Shown here piece after piece: positions 5,321-47,632 of a stretch of 64,000 nucleotides of DNA (positions are counted from its first letter, which is position 1; every line of letters starts with the position of its first letter). This DNA is from Planctomycetota bacterium. GTDB taxonomy: Bacteria; Planctomycetota; MHYJ01; WSZJ01. The DNA lies in NCBI GenBank assembly GCA_038060895.1, contig JBBTCT010000036.1:4883-68882 (forward strand). Direction: 5' to 3'. The translations under genes were made by a program, and so were the position numbers. The notes beneath the pieces were generated by a model. That model saw only the letters and a list, made by a program, of their open reading frames with translations, did not search any database and was not told where the DNA came from.

Positions 5321-5329
5321 CAACAGGCG

Positions 5330-13502: not shown

Positions 13503-16500
13503 TTATCGGTCTCCCAGCTGCGCGTACAACCCCTTGGCCTCCCCGTGCGATGGGTCCAGCTCCAGCGCCCTCTTCAGGCACTTGCGCGCTTCACCCAGGT
13601 TCTTCAGCAGGATCATCACCTTTCCCTTTCCAACCCACCCGTCGGGAGATTTCTCGTCCGCCCGAATGGCCCGGTCGAACGCGCTCAAAGCGGTGGGGAA
13701 GAGTTGCGCGGTGGCGGCGGCGTTTCCGAGCGACAGGAGGGTCGAGGCCCGCTCGCCCTGGATTCGGAGGGCGCGTTCAAACGCCTCCGTCGCCTCCGCC
13801 GCGCGCCCCGTGCTCGCCAACGCCGTGCCATAATTCACGAGCGCCTGCGCAAACCCGGGATCCAGGTCGACCGCCAGGCGGAATTCGACGACCGCCTCTG
13901 TTTCCCGGTGAAGCCCCACCAGCGCCAGCCCCAATAGATGATGAACGTCCGCGCTCGCCGAACGAAAAGATGCGGCGCGGCGAAGGGCCGTCAAGGCGCC
14001 TTCGTAGTCCTGATTCTGAAGAAGTTCATTTCCCACCACGACCAGGTCGGCGCTGAAAAGCTCCTCCTTCCGGAGTGAATCGAGGAGCGGCTGCAGGTCG
14101 GCTTCCTTCACCGGCCGGGCGAACATCCGGCGCATCCGGCCCTCTCCATCGAAAACAAGCGTGGTCGGCAGCGTGGCATGGCCATCCCGACCGAAAAACG
14201 AGTCCAGGGAGGCCGGGTCTGCAATCATGTTGGTCCACTTCACGCCAGTGGACGCGAGCAGTTCCCGCGCTTCCTTTTCCTCCGAGGCGTTCACCAGAAC
14301 CGCCGTGAACTGCACGTCGCTGCCGGATGCGACCGAGACCCGCGCCAGGTCCTGAAGTTCTTCCCGGCACGACGCGCAGGTCGGCGACCAGAAGTGAACC
14401 ACGGCAGGCCGGCCAGGCTTTGCCAAGGGCGAGCGTTCTCCTCCATCCATCGGCTGCATGGCCACCGACAAGTCAAATCGCTTTGCTGCCAGCGGCCGCG
14501 AGTCCGCAGGCCAGCATGGAATCGCTTCCGCCCGCGCTTCCCGGTCGCCCTCTCGAACCCGGATCAGGCGATCCACCGGAAGACCCTCCCAGCGTCCGGT
14601 CGCTCCCGACGGCCACGCGACCTCCAGCACGTCGATGCGTTCCGCGCCGGCCAATCCGAAGTGGATGTGCCCCGGCTGCTGGGTGATGAATCCGTCGGTC
14701 AGCTTCATCCAATCCTGCTGCTTCACTCCTCCCGCGGTCACGCGCACGATCGCGCCGAGCGCCATCGCATTCCCCTTCGTCGCTTCGAGGGCCACCCGGC
14801 AGAAATGCCGGGGCGCAGAGGTGTTTTCCATGATTCGCAACCCCTGCAGGCTCTGCAGCGCGAGGTCCAGATCTCCGTCCCCGTCGACATCGACCATCGC
14901 AGCCGCGCGCCCGTCGTCGTCGAAGTCGAGGCCCTTTACGTAAGCCGCGTCAAAGAAGCGCGGATAGGGACCATCCACGTTGTGGAAGCACTTGTCGCGC
15001 TCGTATCCGCTCCAGGAACCCGAGAAGCGTCTCTCGATTTCGCCGTTGATTTTTGGCGCGACCGCGCCGGATTCCAGGGCTTTCCCGTCGGCGACGACCT
15101 GTCGCCAGAAAAACGTTCACCAGTCCGGCGCAGAGGCGTCGGCGTGTGTGGTGAAGCCGTTTGCGACGAAGAGATCCTTGTCGGAGTCATTGTCGAGGTC
15201 AGCGAAGACGCAGGCCCAGGCCCAATCCGCCCACGCCACGTCGCGCTCGACCGCGGACTCCGTCCAGGCGCCCGAGGCGCTCTGTTCGAACAGCATGTTG
15301 CCGCGGGCCATGACGAGCGCGGAGGCGCGGGTCGAGTCGGTCAATGCGCCTGCGAGTGGCAGGATCCGGTTGCCCGCGTGGCTGTACATTTCCGACGTGT
15401 ACACGCTCCAGTTCCCGGTGTTGTCCCAATCGGCGATCGTGACGCCCATGGTGTAGGCGTTGGACCCTGAGAAAGGGTGTCCTTCGGCCCGTTTGAAATG
15501 CCCCCGGCCGTCCCCGAGGAACACGGGATTGGGTCCCCAGTCGTTGCACTCGTAGAAGTCGGTCTTTCCGTCGCCGTCGAAATCGAAGAATGCGCCGGCG
15601 TAGGTGTACTGCGTGCCCGTCAATCCGCGCTGGTCAGATTCTTCCGAGAACTTCAAACCCCCCTTGTTCATGAAGAGGAGGTTGTCGGCGCCGTCGAACG
15701 AGCCCAGCGAATTGAACTTCTCCTTCCCGGACTCCGAATCGGAGTACGCCCCGAACCAGAGATCGAGGAGCCCATCGCCATCGACGTCCCACGGGATGAG
15801 CGCCTGGATCATGATCTGGCGAATGCCATTCGCGGCCCGGAAACTAAGGGAGTCCGCCAACTTTCGCCACGCGCCGTCCTTCCGCGTGAAGATGGCGATC
15901 GTGCAGAGACCGTCCTCGTATCCGGAAACGTTACTATCAACGAGTTCTTCCAGCCCGTCCCCATCCAGGTCGATGAACGCGAAAACCGGGCCGGCATCCT
16001 GCGAGCCTTCGAACGGAGGCGCCTCCCTCCTGAACCCGCCGAGGCCGTCGTTCACGAACAGCACGGCGTGCTTCTCGTACTGGGTGGCGAGGATGTCCCA
16101 GAAGCCGTCGCGGTTCCAGTCGGCCACGCAAAGGCCGCTGTTTGTCCGGATGTTGCGCGCGTTGATGACGCGCTGGTGGAGATCGCGATTCTCGGTCGAC
16201 TCGTTGAAGTGAAATCCGGTCGCATCGGTCACGTCATTGAACGGGGGGCGCCTCGACTCGATGCGGCACCCCTCACGCAACGCAAGCCGGCTAATTTTCC
16301 AGGAATCGCCGGCCTTGACCACCTCCACGTCGAGGACAGCCTGAACGTCGGTCCGGCCCCGATCCGCGCGCGGACCGGCGAGTTGGAAATGCAGCGCGGC
16401 ACGTGCGGCGTTGCCGTCTTTGCGGAGCAGAAACTCGAAGAACCTCCAGGTCGTGCGTTCCACCGAGGTCCAGCCTTCCGCATGGCGCCGGAGGACCGCG

Positions 16501-16886
16501 ACGAATTCATCGCGGTTGAGTCGCGGAAGCCCGTCAGCGCGGTAACTCCGCAGCCCGAGCTCCCCGTCCTTGACCTCCGTCCCCGCGCCAGGCTCCGGAA
16601 ACCACCCCTGGAAATCCCCCGTCAGTCCGCTTGTCGCCAGGCCCCAATCCTGCCCCCTGAGTCCCTTCATGAACGTGCCCTTCACGCTCTTGCCCGCTTC
16701 TTCCTGGGTCGTCTCAGAGAGCTCGATATCGACGACGAAGGTCTTCGGGCGCGCGGGCCACTCCGGCCAATCGGCGGCGTCCTTGAGGGCATGGCCGGGC
16801 GAGCGACCTGTCCGCCAGATGAGCACCGCTGCGACTCCTGCAGCCACGAGGACTGCAAGAGAAACGAGGATCCTGCGCGGTTTCAC
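13503..16886 (-). CDS. Candidate selenoprotein copy 1: TM anchor / NTF2-like / FG-GAP (CRTAC1-like) / Sec / ASPIC-UnbV / TlpA-like / TPR, 1127 aa with UGA read-through at 15117-15119
   Basis: ORFs 15117..16955 and 13503..14978 are in one frame joined by a single TGA (SAPDW-TGA-TFFWRQVV); intervening 46 codons are open and homologous to paralogues; DxDGDG repeats, HFGL, FWSPTCASC, TPRs. Confidence 0.85.
15088..15119 (-). promoter_or_regulatory. UGA plus SECIS-like hairpin (copy 1)
   Basis: TGA-ACGTTTT-TC-T-GGCGAC-AGGTC-GTCGCC-GA: 6-bp stem, AGGUC loop, bulged U, 2 more pairs. Confidence 0.75.
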
Positions 16887-16965
16887 GTGGATTCCCTCAC
16901 CAGAATGAAACCGGCCCGAACCGTGTGAACGGGTCGGGCCGGAGTGGTCACTCAATCAGCGGAAG

Positions 16966-18633: not shown

Positions 18634-18854
18634 TCTATGCCTCCTTGGGCGGGAGATCCCCGCCCGGCCTCTGTACCGCGGGACGCCGGAATGATTCGAT
18701 GATAATGACGCTTCCGGACGGCAACCGCTCCCCTTTGGAACGCGGGATTCTACTCAAACGCCTGCCGTGCAGCGCAAGAAGAAAGTGTCCGCTGGTCGGC
18801 TTCCCGGAGCAAAGAGACGAATCAAGGTTGTAGCGTATGTTTGCACGCCGAATC

Positions 18855-19991: not shown

Positions 19992-20000
19992 AACAAGCTC

Positions 20001-20477
20001 CTAAAGGGAGAAGTACTTTCCGAAGACGATCTTGTCGTCGCCGGCGATGTAGAAGTCGCGAAACCGCGCGAGCAGCTCGTAGTTGAGCGCCCGGTAGAAT
20101 TCCAGCGTGCCTTCGTAGCCGGCGCGCGAGGATGTCTCGACGAGAAGAGAGCGTCCATGCGCGGCCCGGACGGCTCCTTCGCAATGTTCCACGAGCGTGC
20201 GTCCGATCCCGCGACCCCGGCTTTTCGGATCGACCGCGATCCAGTACAGGTCGTACGTGCCGTCGCTCATGCTGGCTTTGCCCCAGCACGCGTAGCCGAG
20301 GACGGCGCCGTCTTCCTCGGCGATGGCGAATTCGTAATCCGTCTGCCCAGGCCGGAGCCCGGCGTCGATCACCTCGACCGCGACGGCCATCTCCGCTTCG
20401 CTGAAATTTCCCGCGTCGCGCAGAAGCCGCTCGAGGGCGGGCCTGTCAGCGGCGCGCAGGGCGCGAAGCGTGAGCAT
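20001..20477 (-). CDS. GNAT family N-acetyltransferase
   Basis: YDLYWIAVDP..RGRGIG acetyl-CoA motif, VETSS, FY..L.Y, DFY..GDDK. Confidence 0.9.
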   Translation of the reverse strand: MLTLRALRAADRPALERLLRDAGNFSEAEMAVAVEVIDAGLRPGQTDYEFAIAEEDGAVLGYACWGKASMSDGTYDLYWIAVDPKSRGRGIGRTLVEHCEGAVRAAHGRSLLVETSSRAGYEGTLEFYRALNYELLARFRDFYIAGDDKIVFGKYFSL

Positions 20478-21474
20478 GGACAGCACGCGGGCTCCTTCGC
20501 CAGGCCCAGAGGGCGAGGCGTTCGACCAGGTCTTCCCAGGTCCATCCGTGGGCGCGCGCGCATCGCGCGAGCCCGGCGTCGGGGGAGAGGTCGGGGTTGG
20601 GGTTGACTTCGAGGATGAAGGGTTTGCCTGCGTGGTCCATGCGGATGTCGACGCGTGCGACGTCGCGGCATCCGCAGACGCGGAAGGCGCGGAGAGCGAG
20701 GTGGCTGAGACGGGCCGCGGCGGGGCCGGCGAGCGGCGAGGGGCAGCGCGGCACGGTGGATTTGAATTCGACGGACTCGGGGACCCACTTTGCGTCGTAC
20801 GAAACGAAGCGGGGCTTTCCGGCGGGCATGGTGGCGAAGTCGATTTCCGAGATCGGCAGGGCGATCGGCCGCGAGCCGGCGACGGCGACGTTGAACTCGC
20901 GCCCCTCGAGAAATTCCTCGACCAGGGCCGGCTGATGCCAGGTGTCGATCACGAAAGCGACCTGCTCGCGCAGGCTCGACTCGTCGCGCACCACGGACCG
21001 GTCGGTCAGGCCGAGCGAAGCGTCCTCGCGAAGGCACTTCACGATGAGTGGGAAGCGAAGCCCGTCTGAGCTTCGTGGCGCCCGCATCACACGGCCTGCA
21101 GGGACCGGCAGTCCCCACGAAGCGAGGACGGCCTTGGCGCGCTGCTTGTCGAGGGCGAGGGCGATGGCGCTGGGCGGGCAGCCGGTCACGGGGACTCCGG
21201 TCGCCTCGAGTGCCCTCGCGACGGACGCCTCGGCGCTCGAATCGCCCGCGATTCCCTCGACGAGGTTGAACACGACGTCAGGCGCGGCGCGCGACACAAG
21301 GCCCTTCACGACGCGCGGCGACAGCAGGGGCATCGGGATGGTTTCGTAGCCCCGGCCGCGGAGTGCGGTGCCGACCTGCTCCACGGTCCCGCGGATGTCG
21401 TCGTGGGTGGGCGCTTCGCCGGGATGCGACGCCAGAGTGGCGTCGAACGCGAGGGCGATCCGCCGCGGTCTCAC
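20446..21474 (-). CDS. D-Ala-D-Ala-ligase-like ATP-grasp protein (2)
   Basis: PDVVFNLVEG, ALDK, PLIVK..EDASLG, LVEEFLEGREFNV, ARVDIR, LEVNPNPDL; GTG start at 21474 after GGAG. Confidence 0.88.
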   Translation of the reverse strand: MRPRRIALAFDATLASHPGEAPTHDDIRGTVEQVGTALRGRGYETIPMPLLSPRVVKGLVSRAAPDVVFNLVEGIAGDSSAEASVARALEATGVPVTGCPPSAIALALDKQRAKAVLASWGLPVPAGRVMRAPRSSDGLRFPLIVKCLREDASLGLTDRSVVRDESSLREQVAFVIDTWHQPALVEEFLEGREFNVAVAGSRPIALPISEIDFATMPAGKPRFVSYDAKWVPESVEFKSTVPRCPSPLAGPAAARLSHLALRAFRVCGCRDVARVDIRMDHAGKPFILEVNPNPDLSPDAGLARCARAHGWTWEDLVERLALWAWRRSPRAVHAHASRPARR

Positions 21475-21485
21475 GAGGGTCTCCG

Positions 21486-22592
21486 TTATCTCAGGGAAAA
21501 GTGTGCGGGCGGGGCGACGGCGCCGCCCCTGGCGCCGAGGCCGAGGCGGGCGCAGGCGGAGTCGAGGATGCGACGGACGGTGGCGTTGTAAGACAACCCT
21601 GCCGCCCGAGCCGCTTTCGGGAAGCACGAATTTTGTTCGGGCTGCGGGAGGATTCCCGGGAGGGGGTTGACCTCGATCACCTGGGGGCGACCTGAGGCGT
21701 CGCACCGGACGTCGATGCGGGCCCAATCCCGGAGTCGCAGCGCGTCCCACGCGCGCAGGCACACCGACTCGATATCGAGCTCGAGGTCGGCGTCCACCGT
21801 CGCGGGGCAGCGGAAGATCTCCAGCGGTTTATCGCTCGTGTCCCACACCCATTTCGCTTCGAAGGAGTAAATCGGGTGGGCGCCGGGCGGCAGGGAGTCG
21901 AAGAGGATTTCGACGATCGGGAGAACACGGAGGTCGTCTCCGTTTCCGATCAGGGCGACGGTGAACTCGCGGCCGGGGAGAAACTCCTCGACGATGGCGG
22001 GTTCGTGGTAGAGGGAGAGGACGCGGTTGATTTCTGAAGCGAGTTCGGATTCGTTGCGGACGACTGAGGAATTGACGATTCCTTTGGAAGAGCCCTCGGA
22101 GAGAGGTTTGACGATGAGGGGAAACTTGAGAACGGGTTTTCCGGGGGCGGGGAGTGCGCCGTGGCTGGCGACGATGCGGCGGAGGTCGTCGACGGACTCG
22201 GCGATGCGGAACTGCGGGGTGGGGATGCCGTGGGCGCCGAGGATTTCCTTGGTGCGGGACTTGTCCAGGCAGAGGGCGAGGGTGACGGGGTCGCTGCCTG
22301 TATAAGGAAGGCGGAGGAGTTCGAAGAGGGCGGGGAACTGGGCTTCTCGGGCGGCGCCCCAGAGGCCCTCGGCGACGTTGAAGACGACGTCGGGGCGATC
22401 GGCTCGGAGTTTTTCGATGGCCTCCTCGTCGGCTTCGACGAGCGAGACCTGGTGGAACTCGGCGAGGGCGGACTGGATCGCTTCGATGGTTTCGAGGTCG
22501 TCGCACTCGGCGTAGAAATCGGGCGGAGGTTCGCCGGAAGCGGATCCAGATGTAGAGTTCTTCTTGAGGTTATAGACTAAGGCGACCTTCAT
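21486..22592 (-). CDS. D-Ala-D-Ala-ligase-like ATP-grasp protein (1)
   Basis: MKVALVYNLK, PDVVFNVAEG, PYTGSD, CLDKSRTK, PLIVKP..EGSSKGI, VEEFLPGREFTV, ARIDVR, IEVNPLPG. Confidence 0.9.
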   Translation of the reverse strand: MKVALVYNLKKNSTSGSASGEPPPDFYAECDDLETIEAIQSALAEFHQVSLVEADEEAIEKLRADRPDVVFNVAEGLWGAAREAQFPALFELLRLPYTGSDPVTLALCLDKSRTKEILGAHGIPTPQFRIAESVDDLRRIVASHGALPAPGKPVLKFPLIVKPLSEGSSKGIVNSSVVRNESELASEINRVLSLYHEPAIVEEFLPGREFTVALIGNGDDLRVLPIVEILFDSLPPGAHPIYSFEAKWVWDTSDKPLEIFRCPATVDADLELDIESVCLRAWDALRLRDWARIDVRCDASGRPQVIEVNPLPGILPQPEQNSCFPKAARAAGLSYNATVRRILDSACARLGLGARGGAVAPPAHFSLR

Positions 22593-22707
22593 CGACGACC
22601 CCCTTGACCCCGTGTGGACGAATCCGATGAATGTTAGGGTGCTGTTCCCGAAGCACCCCGGCCACCCCCTACAGTTTGGGGAGCAGCCACCCCGAATCAC
22701 ATCCGCT

Positions 22708-22735
22708 AGTATAGCGTGCGATTCCGCACGATCAA
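22708..22735 (-). promoter_or_regulatory. Putative sigma70 promoter of the ATP-grasp/GNAT/KamA operon with a palindrome in the spacer
   Basis: Minus strand TTGATC-16 nt-TATACT; spacer contains CGTGCG-ATTC-CGCACG inverted repeat. Confidence 0.45.
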
Positions 22736-23036
22736 GCAGATTGACCGCGGTCAGGGAAAAAACACGCGGTACCAGGCTGCGCTGGCCACGGGTCATTCAT
22801 CGCGAGGCCCTTCGTCACCCGGGCCGACTCCGCCCGAGCCGCGTGTATTCCCCTGACCCCGGTCAGATGACGGACTCGAAATTGAGATGCAGCCCACGCC
22901 GCGGCAATAAAAACATCGAGAAACCTGGAACTGGATCAACCGGGCGCCCGCCGGACCGGATTTTGTTTTTCGCACTTCTCTTTTTGCGTTTGCCCGCTCC
23001 CGCGGTTCAAGCTCCCGCGCGCCGGCTCGCCGGGCA

Positions 23037-23075: not shown

Positions 23076-23097
23076 CTGTGTCTTCCGGCAATTCGAC

Positions 23098-28100: not shown

Positions 28101-28451
28101 AGGCGCCTGGAGGAGGGCCCGGCGAAGCGCGACCTGGCCGTGTTCCGCACCACGAACGGGCCCGGGCTCTGGGTCTACCAGGGCTACTCGGGGACGTTCT
28201 CGTGGTGGCGCGAGACGCTCGTCCTGAACTGGAAAGAGGGGTACCTCGCACGCCTCCGCATGTATATCCCCGTCCCACCCCGGCCGGGTTCCTGAGACGG
28301 CTGCGGCGACGAGCTTCTGGTAGAAGCTCCCACACCGTCGAAGCCCCCCGCGCCCGTCCCCGGTGGTCCCAAAGGAGATGGCGGCAAGGTCACGCCGCCG
28401 GCGCCGCCGGATGACGGGGGCGCCGAGGTTCCGGTCGATTCGGGAAAGTAG
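25197..28451 (+). CDS. Large exported redoxin (TlpA/AhpC-like)-domain protein; candidate selenoprotein with C-terminal UxxC (TGA 28293-28295), otherwise ending at 28295
   Basis: Signal peptide; APEFTG...GKVVLVQFW...GYEILGVNLD...YPRLYLVDADG thioredoxin fold lacking CxxC; TGA followed in frame by GAC GGC TGC (D-G-C), a Pro-rich tail, then TAG at 28449-28451. Confidence 0.7.
28293..28339 (+). promoter_or_regulatory. UGA plus SECIS-like hairpin (redoxin gene)
   Basis: Lower stem GACGG (28296-28300) / CCGTC (28335-28339); upper stem GAGCTTCT-GGT-AGAAGCTC (28311-28329) with GGU apical loop. Confidence 0.6.
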
Positions 28452-31920: not shown

Positions 31921-34900
31921 TTGCAGACAAAACGCATCCTGCTCGTGCTGCTCGTGCTTGCCGTGGCGGGAGGAGCGGTCGTGCTTTCCCTCCGCAAGTC
32001 CGGCGTGCCGGAGACTCCACGCGGATTCCTCCAGAGGCCCGGAGTGTTCGTTACGGAATTTGAGAAGTCGGAGGCCGTTTTTGACGTCGCCTCCGGGGCA
32101 GTGAAGAAGTCCTTCATGAAGGCCCTCAAGGCGCGGGACTGGGCATCGGCCGCGGCGAGCCTGACGCCGGATTTCAGGGGTCGTTTTCCTCGACTCGCTG
32201 ATGGCGCGGAAGTGCAGGACAGAAACGTCTCCATCCGCGCCTACAAGGCGTCCGGCCTGCCCGAACTGAAGGCCGAAGCGTTTCTCGCCGCCATCCGCGA
32301 GCAGACCGAGGGTTGGACCCAGGTGGAACGGACAACCTGGCGTCCCTTCGAGTTCCTCCTCGATCCGGCCGAGAACCAGGCGTACCTGAGCATTCACTTC
32401 CAGCTTGCCGGCCCGCTTCCGGACGGGAGACGCATCGACCTCGCGGGGGAGGTGAAAGCGATCATCGTCCGCGCCGGGGAGACCTGGAAGGTGCGGGAAC
32501 TGGGGTGGGAGGATGGGAGCAGACTCGAGGCGAAGTTTGTCCCCTGGGCCGACGTGACGGAGCAGACCGGGTTCACGTTCAACGACTCGCCTGAGAACGC
32601 CAGGCTCGTCCAGGAACTCATCAACGCGCGGCGGACCGTCACCGTGGGCGGGCTGATCGCCGCGGACGTCAACGGGGATGGCTTTCCCGACCTGATCTCG
32701 ACGCGCGCGGAACAGGACACGAACGTCTTTCTGAACGACGGACGCGGCGGATTTACCCGCGGCCAGGCGCCCATCCTCGAAGGGAAGCTGTGTCCGAGGA
32801 GTTTTCTGCTGCTCGACCTGGACGGCGACGGCGTCGAGGAACTGGTCAGCGGGTCCATCGACGAGTACGAAGAGGAGCGCGCCTGGGCCGACATCTGGGT
32901 GAGGAACGGGGATTCCTGGAAGCGGCGCCCGCGGGCGCTTGAGTTCCGGATTGCCAGGGCGACCCGGGACATCGCGATTGAGGCCATCGTCCCCACGGAT
33001 GTCGACGGAGACGGACGCCTCGACCTGTATTTCGGCGCCTACAGCACACGAGATTCCCGAACGACGAAATTCAACCGGATTGCGGCCTACGACGGCGCCG
33101 ACAACCTGCTGTTCATGAACCATGGCGGGCTGAAATTCACGGAAGAGTCCGACCAGAGGGGAATCCGTGGAACGCAGTACACGTTTGTCGCCAAGACGTT
33201 CGATTTTGACGGCGACGGCGATCTCGACCTCTGGGACGGAAACGACTACGGCCCCAACGCGCTCTGGCTCAACGACGGAACCGGCAAGTTCGTGGAGGGG
33301 AAGGGTCACATCCTCCAGGAAGGCTCGAACTACACGATGGGCGTGACGATCGCGGACTGGGACAACACGGGCGCCTGGAGCATGTACATCTCCAACATGT
33401 ACAGCCATGCCGGCAATCGAATCGTCCCCCTCGCGGCGGATCTGGGCGAGGACATCAAGAAGGCGGCTCTCGTGCTCGCGGTCGGAAACCAGATGTACGA
33501 GCGGGACGAAAAGACGAAGGCGTGGCGTGAGACGGGCGTATTCCGGGGAGTCAACTGGGCCGACTGGTCCTGGGCCACCCTCTTCCTGGACGGCGACAAC
33601 GACGGCGACAAGGACCTGTTCGTCGCCAACGGATATACGAGCAACCAGGACGCGCAGGCCCCGGACTACTGAACGCACTTCTGGCGACAGGTGGTCGCCG
33701 ATGCACGGCTCATGCAGCAGGGAAAAAATCCGGGAACGTCGTTCTACGAGGGGTCGCAGTGGTTCCGCGGATCGTGGAGCGGATACGAGCGGGACGATTA
33801 CTTCCACAACCCGGACGGCGCCGACCCCCGCTTCTTCCAGTCTTCCTACATCTACGGCCTCGACTTCGACGACGACGGGCGCGCGGGCGTGCCTGTGGAC
33901 ATCGACGGCGACGGGGACCTGGACCTGGCCCTGCAGAGCCTCCAGGGGTTGCGCCTCATGGAGAACACTTCCCCCGCCCGCAATTTCGCCCGGGTTCGCC
34001 TGACGGCGACAAAGACCGAAAATCTCGCCCTCAACGCCGTCGTCAAGGTCATCTCCGCCGGCGTTGCCCAGCAGGACTACGTCCGCCTGACGGACGGGTA
34101 CGCTTCCCAGGTCCCCCGCGAACTGCACTTCGGCCTCGCGGACGCGACGGGCATCGATGAAATCCGGGTGGAGTGGAGATCCGGCGATGTGCAGGTCCTC
34201 AAAGGCCTGCCGGTCAATCGCCTCATCGAGATCACGGAAGGGCAGGAGAAACCCGTCATTTCCGAGCTCAGGAAATGGCCCGACGAATTCCGGCCGAAGC
34301 GCAAACCTCAGTTTTCCTACGACATCGTCGCAGACCGGATCGAGGGAGGCCCGGGCTCCCTGGCTTCCAAGGGCAAGCCCGTCGTGATCAACTTCTGGGC
34401 GCCCTGGTGCGCCGGTTGCGTCGAGGAACTCCCGGAACTGGCGAGAATCGCTTCCGCGAACGCCGGTGAATTCCAGTTCGTCGGCGTCAGCGTCGAAACC
34501 GGAAAGAAGGAAGATGTCCTGAAGGCCATCGCGGATTTCGGGCTGAAATATCCCCAGTTCTACGCGAACGAAGCTCTTCTCCGGAGTTTCTTCGGGGACG
34601 CGGGAGACGCTGCCCTGCCTTCGACTTTCGTGCTGGATGCGCAGGGAAAACTCCGCCGTGTCTTCCGCAGAGCGCTGGGTTCCGGTGAACTGGACGGGGT
34701 TCTCGACTCGTTGAAGCAGGAAGGAACACGTAAGGCGCTCTATTTCCGCCTCGCGGGCGAGAAGGTCGACGCCGGCAGGCCGGATGAAGCGATTCCCTAT
34801 CTCGACAAGGCCCTGGAGATTTCACCCGACGACGCGGAAGCGTGGTTCCACAAAGGCGGCTGCCTGTTCCAGACCGGCAAGGTCGAAGAGAGCGTGGTGG

Positions 34901-35292
34901 CTCTTCAGAAAGCGATCCAGTACGACCCCAGGCATTCGAAGGCGCTCTACAATCTCGGGGTTGCCATGGTCCGGCAGAAGCGGACGCGGGAAGGGATCGA
35001 CCTTTACGAGCAGGCGCTGAAGCTTGAGGGGGAGAATGCCGGGATGCTGATCGCGCTGTCGGTGGCAGCGGCGGAGCTTGAGTTGTGGCCGAAATCGAAC
35101 GATGCGGCGGACCGCGCACTGAAGTCGAATGCGGAGTACGCACCCGCGTGGCTGCAGAAGGGGAAGCTGCTGATCGTGAACAAGGACTACAAGGCTGCGC
35201 GGGAGCACCTGAACAAGGCGCTGGCTTTAGACTCCGGCCTGGCGGAGGCGCGTCAGTACCTGTTCGAACTGGACCGGATGGGCGCGAAGTAG
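31921..35292 (+). CDS. Candidate selenoprotein copy 2 (FG-GAP / ASPIC-UnbV / TlpA / TPR), 1123 aa with UGA at 33670-33672
   Basis: QAPDY-TGA-THFWRQVV in frame; upstream YISNMYSHAGNR and WADWSW; downstream FRGSWSGYERD, HFGL, FWAPWCAGC, TPRs. Confidence 0.85.
33670..33701 (+). promoter_or_regulatory. UGA plus SECIS-like hairpin (copy 2)
   Basis: TGA-ACGCACT-TC-T-GGCGAC-AGGTG-GTCGCC-GA. Confidence 0.75.
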
Positions 35293-37383: not shown

Positions 37384-40300
37384 GTGGCGGACGGCGGGTC
37401 GAACGGCCGGCGCTTCCTGGCGTTCGGGGGAGGCCTGTTGATCCTGGTGCTGGGCGCGATCGCGCTCGTGGCGCTTCTCAAATCGCCGCCCGCCGGGCCC
37501 GGGGAATTCGTCCCCCGCCCGGCCTCGTTCATCTCGGACATCGTGAAGTCCGAGGACGCCTACGACATCGTCAACCCGACCATCAAGGGGACATTCGTCA
37601 AGGGGCTGAAGGGGCGCGACTGGGGGATGGTGGCCTCGTCGCTGGCGCCGGACTTCAAGGCGCGGTGGCCGAAACCCGGCGACGGCAGGGAACTGCCCGA
37701 TGGGGCCATCGCGCTTCGCGAGTACCGCGAGACGCAGTGGCCCGACGCGGACGCGGCGGCGTTCGTCCAGATCCTCAAGGAGCACGTCGACGGCTGGTCA
37801 GCGGTGGAACGCACGACCTGGCGTCCCTTCGAATTCCTCATGGACATCGGCGGCCTCGCGGCCTTCGCGAGCATCCATTTCCAGGTCGCCGGCGTGCGCC
37901 CGGACGGGACGCGCGCGGACCTCGCGGGGCTCGTGCAGGCGCAATTCGTGTCGAAGGACGGGAAGGCGTGGCAGGTGAGGAGGCTGGAATGGGTGGAGGG
38001 GTGCCGCGGCGAAGCGCGGCACAAGCCATGGCGGGATGTGACGGAGGCGTGCGGGCTGACGTTCAACGAAGGCGAGGAAGTTCGCAAGCTGCGCGCGCAG
38101 CTCATCGACGACCGCGGCGTCGTGACGCTGGGTGGGCTGTCGGTCTGCGACTGGAATGGGGACGGGTTCTACGACGTGCTCGCGACGCGCGCGGGGACCG
38201 AGTCGGCGCTTTTCATGAACGACGGAAAGGGCGGTTTCGTGCGTGCGGCGTCGCCGATGAAAGAGGGGCGCGAAGCGGGATTCAGTCCGCTCCTCCTCGA
38301 TCTCGACGGCGACGGGAAGGATGAACTGCTGACCGGGCAAGTGCTTTCCTACGAGAACCAGACGGCGTACATCGGCGTCTACGTGCAGGAGAACGGAGGG
38401 TGGACGCTGCGCCCGAGGGCGCTGGCGGCGCCGCTGGCGAAGGGCACGCGCGCCGTGCTGGTGCAGGGCGTCGAGCCGATGGACGCGGACGGCAATGGGC
38501 TCATAGACCTGTTCTTCTGCAACTATTCCAGCACGGATTCACTCGGCAGGGACTTCAACCGCGTCGCGGCCTACGACGGGATGGACAACTGGCTTTTCAT
38601 GAATTACGGGAAGCTGGATCTTCGCGAAGAATCCGACGGGCGCGGGATCGCCGGGACGCAGTACACGTACGTCGCCAAGGCGTGGGATTTCGACGCGGAC
38701 GGCGATTCCGACATCTTCGAGGGGAACGACTTCGGCCCGAACCACCTCTGGCTGAACGACGGGAAGGCGAATTTCGCGGAAGCGAAGGACCATATTTTCG
38801 GCGCCGACTCGAACTACACGATGGGCGTGTCCATGGCGGACTTCGACAACACGGGCGACTGGACGATGTACATCTCGAACATGTACTCGCACGCCGGGAA
38901 CCGCATCGTGCCGCTGTCGAAGGGGATCAGCCCGGAAATGAAGCGGCTCGGGATGATCCTCGCGCAGGGGAACCAGATGTACGAGCGCAGGGGCGGCGTG
39001 TGGAGCGAGACTGCGGTCGCTCGCGGCACGAACTGGGCGGACTGGGCGTGGTCGTGCCTCTTCTTCGACGCGGACAACGACACCGACAAAGATCTCTTTG
39101 TCGCGAACGGTTTCACGACGAACACGGACCCGAAGGCCCCGGACTACTGAACGCACTTCTGGCGCCAGGTGGTCGCCGACGCGAAGGCCGTGGAGACAGG
39201 GGGGCGGACGTCGCTCACCAACGCGAACATCCAGCGCGACTTCCGCGGGTCTTGGAGCGGCTACGAACGCGACTGCCTCTTCCAGAATCCGGACGGACTG
39301 GCGCCGCGGTTCGTGAACTGCGGGTACCTTTACGGGCTGGACTTCGACGACGACGGGCGGTCGGCCTGCCCGGTGGACATCGACGGCGACGGGGACCTCG
39401 ACATGGTGTGCCTGTCGCTTCAGGGCCTGCGTCTCATGGAAAACACGTCCCCGAAACGGCACTTTGCGCGCATCCGGCTTTCGGCCGGGCCGTCGCACGT
39501 TCTTCCGCTCAACGCACTCGTGAGGGTGACGGCCGGCGGAGTGACCCAGCAGGACACGCTGCGCATCACCGACGGATTCCTCTCCCAGGTCCCCGCCGAC
39601 CTGCATTTCGGGCTCGGCAGCGCGGACAAGATCGACGCAGTCGAGATCACCTGGCCCGGAAGCGGTACGCCGGCGCGATTTTCGGCTCTTCCCGCAAACC
39701 GCCTGCTCGAATTCGTGCCCGGGGAAGCGGCCCCTCGCGTTTCGGAGCTTCGGGCCTGGCCGGCCGAAACGCGGCCGCGGCTGGCGCCCGAGTTTTCGTT
39801 CGCGATTGCGGCGAAGGGGCTCGATGGGAGCGAAGGGCCGCTGGCGGAGAAGGGAAAGCCGGCAGTTGTGAACTTCTGGTCGCCGACGTGCGCGCCGTGC
39901 AAGGAGGAGCTTCCGCTTCTCGCGGCTGCGGCGGACCGGCTCGCGGGACAGGTCCGGTTCGCCGGCGTGAGCACGGAGATCGCCGACGTCGCTTCGGTGA
40001 CTCAAGCGGCCGCCGCGTTCAAGCTCAATTACCCGCAGTTTCTCGCGAACGACGCCCTCGTGCGCAGTTTCTTCGGCGCCGGCGGCGCGGTCATTACGCC
40101 CTCCACGTTCGTCTTCGACGCAGGCGGCCGCCTGCGGCGTGTCTTCCAGCGGACGATCGCGGCAGGCGAGCTGGAAGCCCTGCTCTCGACCTTGAGGGAC
40201 GAGGGACTCTCGGCCTACGACCTCGAGCGCCGTGGGATGCGCTTCATGGACGTCGAGAACTACGAGCAGGCCGCCGCGTTCCTCAAGCAGGCCTCCGACC

Positions 40301-40758
40301 TGCGCGGTGACGACGCCATGCTTCTCTATAATCTCGGCGTCGCGTTACAGCGCCTGGGCCGGAAGGGGGAGTCGCACGCCGCGTTCCTGCGTTCCTTCGA
40401 GCTCGATCCCGGCTATGCGCCGGTCCATCACAATCTTGCGGAAGCCCTCCGGCTGGATTCCCGTTTCGAGGAGGCCGCGGTCCATTACCTCGAGGCGATC
40501 CGGATTCGCGGCGATGAGTACGAGACCTGCTGGGGGCTCGGCGATTGCTGGTCGCGCCTCGGTCGGTCCCAGGAGGCGCTTCTTGCCTTCGACCGAGCGA
40601 TCGCGATGGATTCCCGGCAGACCCGGGCGCTGAAGTCAAAGGCGCTGGAGCTGTCCAAGCTGGGAAAGCCGGGCGAAGCGGCGGCCATCCTGAGAAAGGT
40701 GCTGAGCCTGGCGCCGGGCGACAAGGAAGCCGCCCAGTGGCTGGAGCAGCTCCGGTGA
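37384..40758 (+). CDS. Candidate selenoprotein copy 3 (FG-GAP / ASPIC-UnbV / TlpA / TPR), 1124 aa with UGA at 39148-39150
   Basis: KAPDY-TGA-THFWRQVV in frame; same motifs; FWSPTCAPC; GTG start after GGAG. Confidence 0.85.
39148..39179 (+). promoter_or_regulatory. UGA plus SECIS-like hairpin (copy 3)
   Basis: TGA-ACGCACT-TC-T-GGCG-CC-AGGT-GG-T-CGCC-GA (folds with a 3' bulged U, or with one mismatch in the register of the other copies). Confidence 0.65.
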
Positions 40759-43700
40759 GCGCGCATCCGGCTGTGGGCAGAACAGGAATGCTGGCCGCGG
40801 GAATCGCCGCGTTTCTGGTCACGGTCGGGATCGTCATCGTGATGAAGAGCGGGCAGGGCGCGGCCGCGGCGGCCCCCCTGGCGCGGCCCTCGAAGTACAT
40901 AGTGGATGTGGAGCTCTCCGAGAGGACGTACGAAGTCGCAAACGCGTCTCTGAAGGGACGATTCGTGAAGGGACTGAAGGAGATGGACTGGGAGAAGGCG
41001 CGGGCGGGTTTGGCGACGGGGTTCCGGGGCAGGTTTCCGGCGCCGCTCGAGGGACGGGAAGTTGCGGACGGCTGGGTGGGTGTGCGCGATTACGCCGCAG
41101 CAGGCCTTCCCGAACTCGACGCTGACGCCTTTCTCGGCGTGTTGCGCGACCACCTCGCCGGATGGGCTGTCGTGGAGCGCACGACCTGGCGGCCGTTCGA
41201 GTTCCTGCTCGACCCGGGACTCAAGTCCGCCTACATCAGCCTGCATTTCCAGGTCGCCGGACAGAAACCGGACGGCCTTCGTGCGGACCTGAGCGGCATC
41301 CTGAGCGGCCGGATCGCAAGCGCCGACGGGAAGGACTGGCACATCGAGCGCCTCGAGTGGGTGGAGGGAACGCGCCTCGATTCCTCCCGGCCGCCCTGGG
41401 TGGACATCACGGACGAAACCGGGCTTCACTTCAATGAGTCCGAATCCAACCTCAAGCTCCGCCGCTCGATGATCGACGACCGCGGGCTGACGACCTCGGG
41501 GTCGCTGGTCGTTTCCGACTGGAACCGCGACGGTTTTCCCGACGTGCTGGCCAGCGTTCAGACAGGCATCCTCGCCCTTTTCCTCAACGATGGCCGGGGC
41601 GGCTTCGTCCGCGGAAAGGCGCCGGAAGTTGCTCCCGACCACGTGGCCACCGCCTACGTGGCGCTGGACCTGGATGGGGACGGCACGGACGAGCTTGTGA
41701 GCGGCCTGGTCCAGGTCGATCCCGGAGGGAAGGCGCGATTCCCGGTCTACATCCGCCGCGGAGAAGGCTGGGAAACGCGCTGGATCCGCTTCGACGTCCC
41801 GGTCGGGCTGCACGCCGTGAGCGTCCAGGGAATCGTCCCGGATGACTTCGACCGTGACGGGGACCTCGATCTGTTCTTCTGCTGCTACTCGAATGGCGAC
41901 TCGAAACACGTGGAATTCAACCGGGTCGTCGCCTATGACGGCGCGGACAACTACCTGTTCGTCAACCAGGGCGGATTCGCGTTCACGGAGGAGTCCGACA
42001 CACGAGGCCTCACGGGGACGCAGTACACCTACGTGGCAAAGTGGTGGGACTTCGATTTCGACGGCGATCTAGACCTGTTCGAGGGGAACGACTTCGGCCC
42101 GAACCACCTGTGGCTGAACGACGGCAAGGGGCGGTTTACGGACGCGAAGACGCACATTTTCGACGCGGACACGAACTACACGATGGGCGTCACGATCGCG
42201 GACTGGGAAAACGACGGGACCTGGGGAATGTATATCTCGAACATGTACAGCCATGCCGGGAATCGCGTCTTCCTGCTCGCCGACAACATGGGGCCCGAGA
42301 TGCGCCGGCTGGGGCTGCTGCTCGCGCAGGGGAACCAGTTTTACGAATGCGACCCGAAGAGCCGCGAGTGGCGGGAGACGGCGGTTTCGCGCCGCGTGAA
42401 CTGGGCCGACTGGGCATGGGGCACTTTCTTCTTCGACGCCGACAACGATGGCGACCGAGACCTCTGGGTCACCAACGGCTTCACCACGAACACCGACCCG
42501 AACGCCCCCGACTACTGAACTCACTTCTGGCGGCAGGTCGCCGCCGATGCCCGCGCCCTGGAAACCCGGCGTCGTCCGGAGCAGGATGCCAGGGCCGACC
42601 AGAAATTCCGCGGCTCCTGGAGCGGCTACGAGCGGGATTTCCTCTTCTATAACACCGACGGCCCGTCCGCCACCCTCCCCAACGCCGCCTACCTCTGCGG
42701 CCTCGATTTTGACGACGACGGACGCGCCGCGGCGCCCGTCGATATCGACGGGGACGGGGACCTCGACCTCGTCGTCCTCTCGCTTCAGGGCCTGCGCGTC
42801 GTCGAAAACACCGCTCCCGGCCGGCGCTTTCTTCGGCTCCGACTCGAAGGCGCGAAAGGACAGGCCGACGCGCTCGGCGCGTTGGTAAAGGTCGTGGCGG
42901 GTGGAGTAACGCAGCAGGACTACGCGCGCCTGACCGACGGATTCGCGACGCAGGTGCCGTTCGACCTGCACTTCGGGCTGGGGGAAGCGAAGCTCGCCGA
43001 CCGGGTGGTGGTGACGTGGCCCGGGGGGGAGACCCAGACGGCGCTCGACGTGCCGGCAGACCGGCTGGTCACGATCCGCCGCGGAAAGGACGGATTCGAA
43101 GCCCGCGAACTCCCGGGCTGGCCGGCCGGGTCGCGGCACGGGGTGCGGCCCGCGTTTTCGTTCGTCGAGGCCGCGACGAAGCTGGAAGGTGGTGCGGGAC
43201 CGCTGGCGGCGAAGGGGCGTCCGGCGGTGTTCAATTTCTGGTCGCCTTCCTGCGCTCCCTGCAAGGAAGAGTTGCCGCGCCTGGCCGCGCTTGCCGCGCA
43301 GTACCGCGACGTCGCGCAGTTCGCAGGCGTCTGCGTCGAAACCACGGACCTCGAGGCCGTTCGCGCCGCAGCGAAGTGTTTCGAAATCCCTTACCCGCTC
43401 TTCCTCGCCGATGAAGCCCTGCTCAAGTCCTTCTTCGGTACCGGAGGCGACGTGCCTCTCCCTTCCACTTTCGTGTTCGACGGCAACGGCGACCTCCGAA
43501 GGATCTTTCGCCGCGAGGTCGGGCAGGAAGAGCTGGGCCTGCTTCTCGCCTCCTTCAGCGACGAAGGAACCGGCGCAGCCGAGCTGGACCGGCGCGGCGC
43601 CCGGGCTCACCACCTGGGGAACGATCCCGAGGCCCTCGAGTGGCTGAAGAAAGCGCTGGCCGTGGATCCCGACTCCATGCTCGCGACATACCACATGGGG

Positions 43701-44141
43701 CTCGTGCTTCTGGGACTGGGGCGCCCCGAAGAGGGGATCGCCCACCTGCGTCGCGCCGCCGAACTGGACCCGGAGTACTGGAACGCTTGGTACAACCTCG
43801 GCGCGGCACTTCACAACAGGCGCGACTTCAAGGGTGCCGCCGAAGCCTACCGGAACGCACACAAACTCCGCCCGACCGACATCGTCATCCTCCTGAGTTT
43901 CGGCAATTCGGCGGGAAAGTCCGGCCAGGCCGCGCTCGCCTTCGAGTGCTTCGACCGCGCCGTAGCTCTTCAGCCCGGGAACGCGACGGCGTGGGGGATG
44001 AAGGGCGAGTACCATTTCGTCGTCGGGCAGATTCCCGCGGCGAAGGCGTGTTTTGCGAAAGCGCTCGCGATTGATCCGAATGAGCCGAATTCGCGTGCGT
44101 ACGGCAAAGAGATCGAGAATATTGAAAGGGGAAGAAAGTGA
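40755..44141 (+). CDS. Candidate selenoprotein copy 4 (FG-GAP / ASPIC-UnbV / TlpA / TPR), about 1128 aa with UGA at 42516-42518
   Basis: NAPDY-TGA-THFWRQVA; 121 open conserved codons after the TGA contain no ATG/GTG/TTG; FWSPSCAPC; GTG start overlaps copy 3 stop (alternative ATG 40788). Confidence 0.85.
42516..42547 (+). promoter_or_regulatory. UGA plus SECIS-like hairpin (copy 4)
   Basis: TGA-ACTCACT-TC-T-GGCGGC-AGGTC-GCCGCC-GA; G-C pair replaces the A-U pair of copies 1 and 2. Confidence 0.75.
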
Positions 44142-47100
44142 CCGTGAAACCGCCGGTGGCGCCCGCGAAGCGCGTGCAGATTCCGATGATGATTCCCGCC
44201 TGTTTTCTTGCGCTGGCGGCGATCGTCGCGCTGATGATCTACCTGAAGAACCTACCGAAGTCGACGGGGCCCTTCCTGACGCGCCCGGAGACTTTCGTGA
44301 CGGACTTCGCGAAGTCGGAAGGAGTGCACGACCTTGCCACGAGCGGCGGAACCGACAAGAAGACCGGCGCCGCCGTCAAGGGCGTGAAGGGGACGTTCCT
44401 GAAAGGGATGCGCGAGCGGGACTGGGGGATGATGGCCTCCGGAATGGCGCCGGGTTTCCGGGCCCGCTTCCCGCAAATTGCCGATGGAAAAGAAGTTCCC
44501 GACGGCCTGCTCCGGATCCGGCAATACGAGGGCTCGGAGCTCAAGCGCGAGCTGGACAAGGACGCGTTCACGTCGGTGATGAAGGAGCAGGTCGGCCCGT
44601 GGGCGGCAGTGGAGCGCGCCGTGTGGCGCTCGTTCGAGTTCCTGCTCGACCCGGGTGAAAAGAGTGCGTTCCTCAGTGCCCATTTCCAGCTTGCCGGGAT
44701 TCTCCCGGACGGCGGGCGCGTCGATTTCACGGGAGTCATCCAGGCCCGGGTGATCCGCGACGGCGACGTCTGGAAAGTGAAGCAGTTCGGGCTCGTCGAG
44801 GGGTGGCGGGCGGAATCGAGCTTCATGCCGTTCAACGACATCACCGATCAGGTCGGGCTGGCGTTCAACGAGTCCGAGGAGCGCCGCAAGGTCGCGCAGG
44901 GGCTGATCAACGACCGGGGCGTCGTCACGAGCGGGGGATTGACCGTCGCGGATTTCAATGACGACGGATTTCCCGACATCCTCGCCGCCTCGATCCACAA
45001 CGACGCGATCCTCTTCGTCAACGACGGACAGGGAGGCTTCATCCGCGGACCCGTCGTCACCAATCCGGAGGAATGCGGCCCCTGCTGGCTGTCCGTCGAT
45101 CTCGACGGCGACGGGGTCGAAGAGCTGGTCAGCTCCCAGGTCCTCTCGTACGAGGGCAACAAGGCGAAAGGCGCGATCTATCGCCGCAAGGGCGACGCCT
45201 GGGTGCTCGTTCCGGACGCGCTGGTTTTCCCGATTGGGCAGGGGGAGCGCGACCTTTCGATCCAGGGGATCGTTCCGCACGACGTCGACGGGAACGGACT
45301 CCTCGACCTGTTCTTCTGCGTCTACAGCAACCGCAACTCGAAGGGGCCGAACTACAACCGCGTCGTCGCCTACGACGGCGCCGACAACCATCTCTTCATG
45401 AACAAGGGCCACCTCGCATTCTCCGAGGAGTCCGACGCCCGCGGCATCACGGGGACGCAGTACACCTACGTCGCAAAATTCTGGGACTTCGATTTCGACG
45501 GGGATACGGACCTCTTCGAAGGGAATGACTACGGCCCGAATCACCTGTGGCTGAACGACGGGAAGGGAAAGTTCACCGACGCGAAGAGCCACATCTTCAA
45601 CGCCGATTCGAACTACACGATGGGCGTCACGATTGCCGACTGGGACAACACGGGCGCCTGGTCGATGTACATCTCCAACATGTACAGCCATGCGGGGAAC
45701 CGGATCCTTCCTCTCATGACCGGAGTGAAGGACGACACGAAGCGGCTCGGGCTGGTTCTCGCCCAGGGAAACCAGATGTACGAGTACGTCCCGGCAGGAC
45801 GGCAGTGGACCGAGACCGGCGTCAAGCGGGGCGTGAACTGGGCGGACTGGGCCTGGGCCTGCCTCTTCTGGGATCCCGACAACGACGGCGACCGCGACCT
45901 CTTCGTCGCGGACGGGTACACGACGAATTCCGACCCGAAGGCGCCCGATTACTGAACGTTTTTCTGGCGGCAGGTCGCCGCCGACGCGTCCGCACTGGAG
46001 AAGAAGGAGCAGGCATCCCTCGCCCGCAGCGAGGAGGACGCGCGTTTTCGCGGCTCCTGGAGCGGCTACGAGCGCGATTTTCAGTTCCACAACGCCGACG
46101 GGCCGTGCCCGGTTTTCTTCAATACGGCGTACCTGTGCGGCCTCGACTTCGACGACGACGGTCGCGCGGCCGCTCCTGTCGATATCGACGGGGACGGTGA
46201 CCTCGACCTCGTCCTGCTCTCGCTGCAGGGCCTGCGCGTCATGGAAAACCGCATGCCGCGAAGGCGCTTCGCGCGCCTCCGCCTCACCGCGACCACGACT
46301 GAGCCCCTCGCCCTCGGCGCCATCGTGTCTCTCACCGCCGGCGGCGTTACGCAGCAGGACTACGTCCGCATCACCGACGGGTTCATGACACAGGTCCCGC
46401 GCGAACTTCATTTCGGCATCGGCAACGCCGATAAAATCGACCGCATCACCGTTCGCTGGCCGGGCGGGAACGCGAAGGTCTATTCGGACATCCCCGCCGA
46501 CCGCCTGGTGGAAATCCGGGAGGACGAAGCGGCGCCGAAGGTGTCCGAGCTTCCGGCCTGGCCCGAGGCCACGCGCCCGAAGGCGCGCCCGTCATTCTCG
46601 TTCGAGACGGCCCTCGATCGGCTGGCGGGCGGAAAGGCGCCGCTCGCCACGACAGGAAAGCCCGCGGTCGTGAACTTCTGGTCCCCGACGTGCGCACCGT
46701 GCAAGGAGGAACTGCCGCGCCTGGCCGCGCTGGCGAGAGAATTCGGCGACCGCGTGCAGTTCGCGGGGGTCTCCGCCGAGTCGAAGGATCTTGAATCCGT
46801 TAGGAAGTCGGTCGCCGACTTCGGCGTCCCCTACCCGCAATTCCTGGCTAACGAGGCCTTCCTCAAGAGCTTCTTCGGCACCGGGGACGCCATTCTCCCC
46901 TCGACCTTTGTTTTCGACGGCGCCGGCCGCCTGCGGCAGTCCTTCCACCGCGCGATCTCACAGCCCGAGCTTGCTGCGCTCCTGGAATCCTTCCGCGAGG
47001 AATCCGTCGCCGCCGCCGATCTCGTCGCGCGAGGCTCCGCCCTCATCCAGAGCGGGGACTTCGAAGCGGCCGCCCGCTTCCTGCATGACGCCGTCAAGGC

Positions 47101-47632
47101 CGACCCGGAGTCTTCCGCGGCACTTAATCAACTGGGCACGGCGCTGAGCGGGGTTGCGGGGTCCATTGAATCGGGAAAAACGCCCGCGGCCGACGCCGCC
47201 GAAGCAGAACGTCGCCGGCAGCAGGCCATTCCGAAGTGGGAGGAAGCCATTGTCTGGCTTCAGCGGGCCGTCGCTCTCGACGCCGACTTCTCCGAGGCGC
47301 AGTACAACCTCGGCGTGGCTCTCCAGCGCACAGGCCGCTACGAGGCCGCGATCAAGGCACTGGAGGAGGCGCTTCGCGTCGTCCCGAATTCCTACGACTC
47401 CCTCTATTCTCTCGGGATGTCGGCGGGGGCGGCCAGGCAGAACGCCCTCGCGGGGGACGCCTTCGAGCGGGCGATCGTGCTCGCGCCCCGCCGCCCCGAG
47501 GCGTGGGTTGGAAAAGGGCTGTGGCTGCGCCAGATAGGGAAGATGGAGGAGGCGAAGAGCGCGCTTCAGAAGGCGGTTGAGCTCGACCCCTCGAATGAGG
47601 AGGCCCGTGGCATCCTCCAGGGGATGCCATAG
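44138..47632 (+). CDS. Candidate selenoprotein copy 5 (FG-GAP / ASPIC-UnbV / TlpA / TPR), about 1164 aa with UGA at 45953-45955
   Basis: KAPDY-TGA-TFFWRQVA; 95 open conserved codons before the first downstream start; FWSPTCAPC; GTG start overlaps copy 4 stop. Confidence 0.85.
45953..45984 (+). promoter_or_regulatory. UGA plus SECIS-like hairpin (copy 5)
   Basis: TGA-ACGTTTT-TC-T-GGCGGC-AGGTC-GCCGCC-GA. Confidence 0.75.

Follow-up and report, generated by a model that had tools for sequence, protein, structure and literature searches.

Bacterial selenoproteins whose selenocysteine insertion sequence (SECIS) lies within the coding region, such as SelD and FdhA, are specified by an in-frame UGA followed at 16-18 nt by a hairpin with G[G/U] in its small apical loop; selA, selB, selD and tRNA-Sec are present in their genomes, and homologues exist with Cys in place of selenocysteine (Sec). 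Two other described groups are relevant here: the CRTAC1/ASPIC/UnbV family, for which we know of no catalytic function, and the TlpA/ResA oxidoreductases, among which the selenoproteins of the TlpA (UGC) and ResA-like WAxxUGC (NF041054) types have Sec replacing a Cys of the CxxC motif. We analysed a stretch of 64,000 nucleotides (the window) from a Planctomycetota bacterium (GenBank assembly GCA_038060895.1, contig JBBTCT010000036.1, positions 4,883 to 68,882 of the forward strand), in which five paralogous genes for large proteins are each interrupted once by TGA. On computational evidence only, it is likely (probability roughly 0.85) that each of the five pairs of open reading frames (ORFs) is one gene with an internal UGA decoded as Sec, and that the products form a new family of CRTAC1-like selenoproteins.

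The window genes resemble SelD and FdhA in all the features named above. They differ in that their Sec lies outside CxxU, UxxC and UxxT motifs and outside a thioredoxin fold, in the presence of 5-10 paralogues per genome, and in having nearest sense-codon relatives with Gln, Asn, Asp or Glu. With the CRTAC1/ASPIC/UnbV family they share FG-GAP_3 and UnbV_ASPIC domains and the overall fold, to which they add a membrane anchor, an N-terminal alpha+beta domain, a redoxin domain and tetratricopeptide repeats (TPRs). The fused redoxin domain is that of the TlpA/ResA oxidoreductases, with a WxxxCxxC motif, an AhpC-TSA/Redoxin match in copies 2-5 and a ResA-like (3c73) predicted structure. In contrast to the TlpA and ResA-like selenoproteins, however, the window proteins keep both Cys of the CxxC, and the Sec is found about 246 residues upstream in another domain. 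The NF041054 model matched copy 2 only, at 29.8 bits against a cut-off of 300, and the window proteins are not members of that family.

Under translation table 11 the genes are read as ten ORFs in five pairs. When TGA was translated as Sec, every pair became a single frame with one internal TGA, in agreement with the preliminary description of this DNA, which had placed the interruptions at the same five positions. Copy 1 (13503..16886, minus strand) encodes 1127 aa and ends in TAA, with Sec590 specified by the TGA at 15117..15119 (minus strand) in the context APDW-U-TFFWRQV; the GTG at 16886 was chosen as its start, the longest ORF running from 16955. Copy 2 (31921..35292, plus strand; 1123 aa, stop TAG), the copy modelled with AlphaFold2, has Sec584 at 33670..33672 (plus strand) in the context APDY-U-THFWRQV. 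Copy 3 (37384..40758, plus strand; 1124 aa) has its in-frame TGA at 39148..39150 (plus strand; Sec589) and a terminal TGA that serves as the stop. Copy 4 (40788..44141, plus strand; 1117 aa, TGA stop) has Sec577 at 42516..42518 (plus strand); the ATG at 40788 was chosen as its start, the longest ORF beginning at 40545 and overlapping copy 3. Copy 5 (44138..47632, plus strand) encodes 1164 aa with stop TAG, and its TGA lies at 45953..45955 (plus strand; Sec606). These lengths are those obtained with the most plausible starts. Of the range of 1123-1164 aa reported previously, the upper end stands, and the lower end is now 1117 aa with the chosen start of copy 4.

The paralogues are 43-48% identical to copy 1. 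Their TGAs occupy a single alignment column within APD[YW]-TGA-T[HF]FWRQV, preceded by an invariant A-P-D and followed by an invariant T-x-F-W-R-Q-V, and invariant blocks resume immediately past the column, so that the earlier statement of an identical codon in all five holds. From the ORF coordinates, the nearest start codon 3' of the TGA is 46, 6, 6, 121 and 95 codons away in copies 1-5, respectively, the distances for copies 1, 4 and 5 being those given before. Beyond the internal TGA, these frames contained none but those that terminate copies 3 and 4, and the wrong frames of this region contained 10-28 TGAs. Because copies 3 and 4 terminate in TGA, one codon has two readings inside one gene.

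Contigs of two public sequencing runs from two other studies (X3 and X4) cross 33670-33672 with no difference listed, and a diverged contig (X5) was likewise unchanged at the copy 2 TGA. A contig of run X1 was also unchanged at 33670-33672, and since X1 is possibly the source run it was not counted as independent. As contigs from other studies carry the same bases, assembly error was rejected as the origin of the TGA; the confirmation from sequencing reads that had been suggested earlier is thereby provided for copy 2. The observation of five TGA-interrupted paralogues is confirmed as real and is far beyond chance.

The interruption was conserved in relatives. In a survey of 41 genomes, comprising the window's own and 40 relatives, 69 matches were obtained at E ≤ 1.1e-20, and 65 of these contained exactly one TGA. 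The four TGA-less matches were one that stopped short of the column, one with Glu and two that were distant; neither TAA nor TAG occurred in any of the 69 strong matches. The window's own genome has seven TGA copies in all, with the extra ones at C24:199429-200466 and C30:15633-16664, and a genome of the same genus has ten verified TGA sites. All 70 extracted TGA sites, at least one of them a duplicate, fell at one column with the motif D-x-U-x-x-[FYL]-[WN], across several subfamilies with identity down to 29%. The same-column TGA was found in loci titled Ca. Brocadiia, Phycisphaerae, Vicinamibacterales (one on a closed chromosome) and Pyrinomonadaceae, and by these lineage titles the family spans at least two phyla, a reach absent from the preliminary description. 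selA scored above its cut-off in all 20 genomes with verified TGA forms, and TGA forms were found in none of the 16 genomes without selA.

A SECIS-like hairpin begins 10 nt past the UGA in all five copies, within the codons for W-R-Q-V-[VA]-A-D. Its stem is GGCG[A/G/C]C / G[U/C]CGCC, of 6-7 bp, and its loop is AGGUC or AGGUG, 16 nt from the UGA, with folding energies of -9.8 to -13.5 kcal/mol. The hairpins are GGCGAC-AGGUC-GUCGCC in copy 1 (15090..15106, minus strand), GGCGAC-AGGUG-GUCGCC in copy 2 (33683..33699, plus strand), GGCGCC-AGGUG-GUCGCC in copy 3 (39161..39177, plus strand) and GGCGGC-AGGUC-GCCGCC in both copy 4 (42529..42545, plus strand) and copy 5 (45966..45982, plus strand). Published rules for bacterial SECIS elements specify a loop of 3-9 nt with G in the initial two positions, a 4-16 bp stem, a distance of 16-37 nt from the UGA and a minimum free energy of ≤ -7.5 kcal/mol (PMC13188914). 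Copies 1, 2, 4 and 5 pass these rules outright.

Covariation was analysed in the window's subfamily on 41 sites (40 distinct), with one locus (L176) outside the selection pattern. Among the 40 distinct sites, 97.9% of cells were paired, both-sided changes were seen in four of the six pairs, and none of 500 shuffles reached the observed value. The fifth pair (18-26) was A-U in 18 sites, G-C in 15, G-U in 5 and another combination in 2, and was never A.C; here a synonymous change of an Arg codon in the stem follows a Val/Ala change. In a member from another genus the stem was kept by two double changes under a different peptide, and in other subfamilies it was shifted by one base, or was in two parts with a GGUC or GUUC loop. 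A simple scan for perfect stems found a qualifying hairpin at 16-21 nt in 48 of 67 distinct Sec sites versus none of 11 sense-codon homologues, a control set that excludes three loci (L196, L197 and L200) in which the wrong motif had been matched. Five of the 11 controls share the peptide FFWRQVVA and have no hairpin, which ties the hairpin to the TGA and not to the peptide.

The genome of the window (5.4 Mb, 47 contigs, 86.5% complete) encodes the complete machinery. selA (541 bits) and selB (344 bits, both ends covered) were detected, together with a tRNA-Sec (71.7 bits) with anticodon TCA and an 8/5 acceptor/T arm. selD (364 bits; C2:48628-49548, minus strand) is itself a selenoprotein gene with an in-frame TGA in SSCAGU-ASK; its hairpin, of 6 bp with a GGC loop, starts 11 nt past the UGA and has the same spacing as in the window copies. 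A second tRNA-SeC call by ARAGORN (C1:472898-472990) has mismatched stems and 75% G+C. Owing to its poor fold and its absence from the Infernal list, this call was taken as false, and it probably lies inside coding sequence. TGA was the commonest terminator of ORFs of at least 500 codons (TGA 1250, TAG 754, TAA 304), and the housekeeping genes of the window are intact under table 11. General reassignment of UGA was therefore rejected, TGA being the main stop and ending copies 3 and 4.

Among the 266 proteins obtained from two database searches, 132 cover the Sec column, 27 end exactly before it and 107 were uncovered or low-scoring. Residues at the column, as assigned by local alignment, were Cys (30), Gln (23), Asn (21), Glu (20), Asp (14) and Ser (11) and, more rarely, Ala (5), Leu (3), His (2), Val (1), Tyr (1) and Thr (1); Trp and Arg were found in none of the 132. 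The Cys forms are mostly short CRTAC1-like proteins of about 770 aa, named 'CRTAC1 family protein' by NCBI. One of 1184 aa (P0196) has Cys at the column together with the full architecture and the CxxC, and TGC stands at the column in five acidobacterial genes. The Asp two residues before the column and the Trp four residues after it were conserved in at least 90% of 44 diverse homologues. In a FastTree phylogeny of 219 rows, from which 23 rows had been dropped because the column was unaligned, Sec forms fell into at least five separate clades with at least eight changes between Sec and non-Sec, and the window's clade was sister to a clade of Gln, Glu, Asn and Asp forms (support 98). As the tree is unrooted, gains of Sec are not distinguishable from losses. 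At one locus (L190; G008:C104:7000-16500) the second gene, at locus positions 4146-7979, has GAG (Glu) at the column and is arranged in tandem with a paralogue that carries Sec. Both the CxxC and a near-intact hairpin (-7.2 kcal/mol) are still present in this gene, which from its sequence looks like a recent replacement of Sec.

Together, the Sec machinery, the TGA or Cys at the column in homologues, the hairpin with its covariation and the independent contigs support Sec insertion in a CRTAC1-like family, as the preliminary description had proposed; a conserved TGA or Cys, the genes for the machinery and a hairpin downstream of the UGA were each anticipated there and each found.

Domain analysis bore out the proposed FG-GAP/ASPIC-UnbV fold. 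In all five copies FG-GAP_3 (81.6-92.8 bits, cut-off 26.9) and UnbV_ASPIC (54.1-62.1 bits, cut-off 23.4) matched in Pfam, as did C-terminal TPRs; the propeller part matched no NCBIfam model. AhpC-TSA or Redoxin was above cut-off in copies 2-5, and the corresponding region of copy 1 gave just Thioredoxin_2, at 17.3 bits and under its cut-off. An AlphaFold2 model of copy 2, made with Cys in place of Sec and an alignment of 44 sequences, was of high confidence (mean local confidence, pLDDT, 93.2; predicted template-modelling score, pTM, 0.91). In it a membrane helix (residues 2-26) is followed by an alpha+beta domain (47-204), the propeller (about 245-700), the UnbV beta domain (707-781), a thioredoxin fold (803-931) and TPR helices (938-1122). 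With this one N-terminal membrane helix, we infer that the bulk of the protein is periplasmic. The Sec motif, D-x-U-x-x-[FY]-W, lies within the propeller part, where Sec584 opens the predicted helix 584-599. The top solved match of the model in Foldseek was murine CRTAC1 (9etn_A; E 4.1e-20, target TM 0.71, 618 aligned columns), and the other domains matched ResA (3c73) and TPR proteins. The region of the D-x-U-x-x-F-W helix had no sequence-level alignment to murine CRTAC1, and for this reason animal CRTAC1 may lack a site equivalent to Sec.

The CxxC redoxin domain, TlpA-like and fused downstream of the propeller, is a feature that the preliminary description had not included. WxxxCxxC is present 245-247 residues past the TGA in all five copies, as WSPTCASC in copy 1 (CxxC at 14367..14378, minus strand; residues 837-840), WAPWCAGC in copy 2 (34408..34419, plus strand; residues 830-833), WSPTCAPC in copy 3 (39889..39900, plus strand), WSPSCAPC in copy 4 (43251..43262, plus strand) and WSPTCAPC in copy 5 (46691..46702, plus strand). 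The Sec and this pair are the only invariant Cys or Sec columns of the five copies. In all 12 complete Sec forms examined WxxxCxxC occurred about 245-270 residues downstream of Sec, and among 46 probable C-terminal halves that were long enough there were 35 with WxxxCxxC, one with FxxxCxxC and 10 with a degenerate motif. Sense-codon forms mostly lacked it: WxxxCxxC was found in 7 of 119 proteins of the six commonest residue classes (Gln 0/23; Asn 0/21, eight with the second Cys only; Glu 1/20; Asp 2/14; Ser 3/11; Cys 1/30).

The following mechanism is proposed. SelB and tRNA-Sec would decode the internal UGA, directed by the short SECIS hairpin 10 nt downstream, to give a product of about 1120 aa comprising a membrane helix, an alpha+beta domain, a CRTAC1-like propeller with UnbV_ASPIC, a TlpA/ResA-like CxxC domain and TPRs. 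The fused CxxC domain would resolve the oxidised Sec and might itself be re-reduced via a membrane protein of the DsbD/CcdA type; a DsbD_TM protein is encoded in the genome. Redox-active Cys or Sec residues typically sit at a helix start. Since Sec begins a predicted helix and mostly co-occurs with an intact CxxC, it may be a redox-active or nucleophilic catalytic residue resolved by the CxxC domain, a role that we judge to have about an even chance of being correct.

Several results weigh against Sec insertion or against its redox role. selA was present in 36 of the 41 genomes of the relatives set and in 50 of 61 genomes of one acidobacterial order, and because it is near-ubiquitous in both sampled groups its co-occurrence with TGA is weak support. 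The copy 3 stem contains one C.U mismatch and passes the bacterial SECIS rules just through an alternative fold (-9.8 kcal/mol); 19 of the 67 distinct Sec sites failed the perfect-stem scan, mainly those of the PPFWKSV subfamily with its interrupted stem; and an Rfam scan of the whole window at E ≤ 1 returned no SECIS family and no match to the hairpins. None of the listed sequencing runs that hold the sequence is an RNA run. The coupling of Sec to the CxxC is not absolute, as the motif is missing from 10 of the 46 probable C-terminal halves and is kept by some sense-codon forms, namely a Ser form (P0006), the Glu gene at L190 and two Asp forms (P0211 and P0235). Lastly, among full-length relatives with a sense codon, the closest carry Gln, Asp, Glu, Asn or Ser at the column and not Cys. 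This point, the Gln, Asp, Glu and Asn of which had not figured in the preliminary description, is unusual for a catalytic redox Sec, and a metal-ligand role of Asp-x-Sec fits the alternation of Gln, Asn, Asp, Glu and Ser about as well as a redox role does.

That metal-ligand role is the most serious of the alternatives, although we regard it as the less likely function. Sec would be inserted as proposed, and would bind a thiophilic metal together with the Asp two residues upstream, while the CxxC would only keep Sec reduced in the periplasm or be unrelated to it. All of U, C, S, D, E, N and Q, among which the column varies, are capable of binding metal, the Asp and the Trp four residues on are both highly conserved, neighbouring FG-GAP repeats bear loops of the DxDxDG type, and the probable Sec forms without CxxC would be accommodated. 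Molybdopterin enzymes of the dimethyl sulfoxide reductase superfamily use Sec, Cys, Ser or Asp as the metal ligand; these offer an analogy only, in one column that alternates between Sec or Cys and oxygen-ligand residues, for they are unrelated in fold and the window proteins showed no cofactor-binding motifs. Against a metal site, the clades in which Gln, Asn, Asp or Glu has replaced Sec have also lost the CxxC or show it in decay, the vicinity of Sec in the five copies contains no invariant Cys or His that could be a second soft ligand, and Sec stands at a helix start. For about 20% of selenoprotein families a role in binding atoms or moieties, mostly metals, has been predicted (PMC13188914), which favours the metal site.

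The remaining alternatives deny Sec insertion altogether. A near-cognate or suppressor tRNA (Trp, Cys or Arg), helped by the hairpin, might read through the UGA, giving short and long isoforms without selenium, and a downstream hairpin can indeed also stimulate read-through. This is very improbable, as the 132 homologues include 30 with Cys and none with Trp or Arg, selA is above cut-off in each of the 20 genomes with verified TGA forms, the sole TCA-anticodon tRNA found by ARAGORN besides tRNA-Sec is the poor call that Infernal does not list, and the loop and spacing of the hairpin are those of bacterial SECIS elements and of the genome's own selD. Least probable of all is that the TGAs are true stops, either between two separate genes, one for the propeller half and one for the redoxin/TPR half, or in decaying pseudogenes. 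Gene callers do split the frames, the halves are entered in databases as 'VCBS repeat-containing protein' and 'tetratricopeptide repeat protein', and in copies 2 and 3 a GTG lies six codons past the TGA; but the next start of copies 1, 4 and 5 is far downstream, inside invariant sequence, and a break at the TGA would cut a propeller blade and a helix that are continuous in the confident model and in the sense-codon homologues. The codon is, moreover, always TGA, at one column in 70 sites and two phyla, and pseudogenes would gather other stops and frameshifts, of which none were seen.

With Sec insertion in a CRTAC1-like protein as the preferred explanation, the family was compared with published catalogues. 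None of the 119 families in Table 1 of a 2026 review contains FG-GAP, UnbV_ASPIC, VCBS or CRTAC1 (PMC13188914), and PF13517, PF07593 and PF01839 are not mentioned in that paper. The main texts of the deep-Sep and BSepDB papers and of a 2022 review make no mention of FG-GAP, VCBS, ASPIC or CRTAC1. A full-text literature search gave nothing relevant that joins selenoproteins with FG-GAP, ASPIC, UnbV, CRTAC1 or VCBS, Haft and Tolstoy 2025 being covered through the review table only. Selenoprotein candidates described from Planctomycetes include fdhA and fmdB (PMC4807772). The window family is best described as a new one of a known kind, that with a coding-region SECIS, and as unusual in its fold, Sec position, paralogue number and evolutionary pattern.

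Other genes of the window were also inspected. Two proteins of about 900 aa, encoded at 29035-31752 and 47760-50462 (both plus strand), flank the selenoprotein gene cluster; they have no Pfam match, are 37% identical over their full length, and both start with a lipoprotein-like Gly-Cys. Homologues of these proteins were found in none of five other genomes with Sec forms, and the neighbouring 905-aa protein was accordingly rejected as a conserved partner. Between copies 1 and 2, the gene at 25197-28295 (plus strand) encodes 1032 aa in which the sole recognised part is AhpC-TSA/Redoxin (residues 256-383), making it a second redoxin-bearing large protein in the cluster. Two adjacent minus-strand ORFs at 20446-21762 and 21486-22796, overlapping as listed, each match the D-Ala-D-Ala ligase C-terminal/ATP-grasp domain. 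Upstream of the cluster are Secretin (type II/III; 5330-7297, minus strand) and PilM (10207-11250, minus strand), with large ORFs without Pfam matches between them. At 61640-61732, about 90 nt matched two plant/animal miRNA models on both strands under the gathering scores; these matches are spurious, and have the signature of a long near-perfect palindrome.

Gene callers halve these genes and the halves are filed under unrelated names, so that genome annotation and selenoproteome counts are wrong for these lineages. BSepDB is described as built by homology to known families, and homology-based resources of this type would miss the window family. The family adds a large, multi-domain and probably periplasmic beta-propeller protein to a list of selenoproteins dominated by small thioredoxin-fold proteins, and is unusual among them in its 5-10 paralogues per genome. 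Sec positions reliably point to functional residues. The Sec column thus offers a concrete residue, with a fused redox partner, in a superfamily for which no established molecular function is known to us. More tentatively, and with somewhat less confidence than we place in the redox role itself, Sec may mark an unrecognised active site of the bacterial CRTAC1/UnbV-ASPIC superfamily, in which the family would toggle between a selenium-dependent periplasmic oxidoreductase and a non-redox form; this suggestion is based on the eight or more switches between Sec or Cys and Gln, Asn, Asp, Glu or Ser, and on the tendency of the CxxC to be kept with Sec and lost without it. If such toggling does occur, 5-10 paralogues per genome would amount to a large share of the selenoproteome in some groundwater Planctomycetota and Acidobacteriota.

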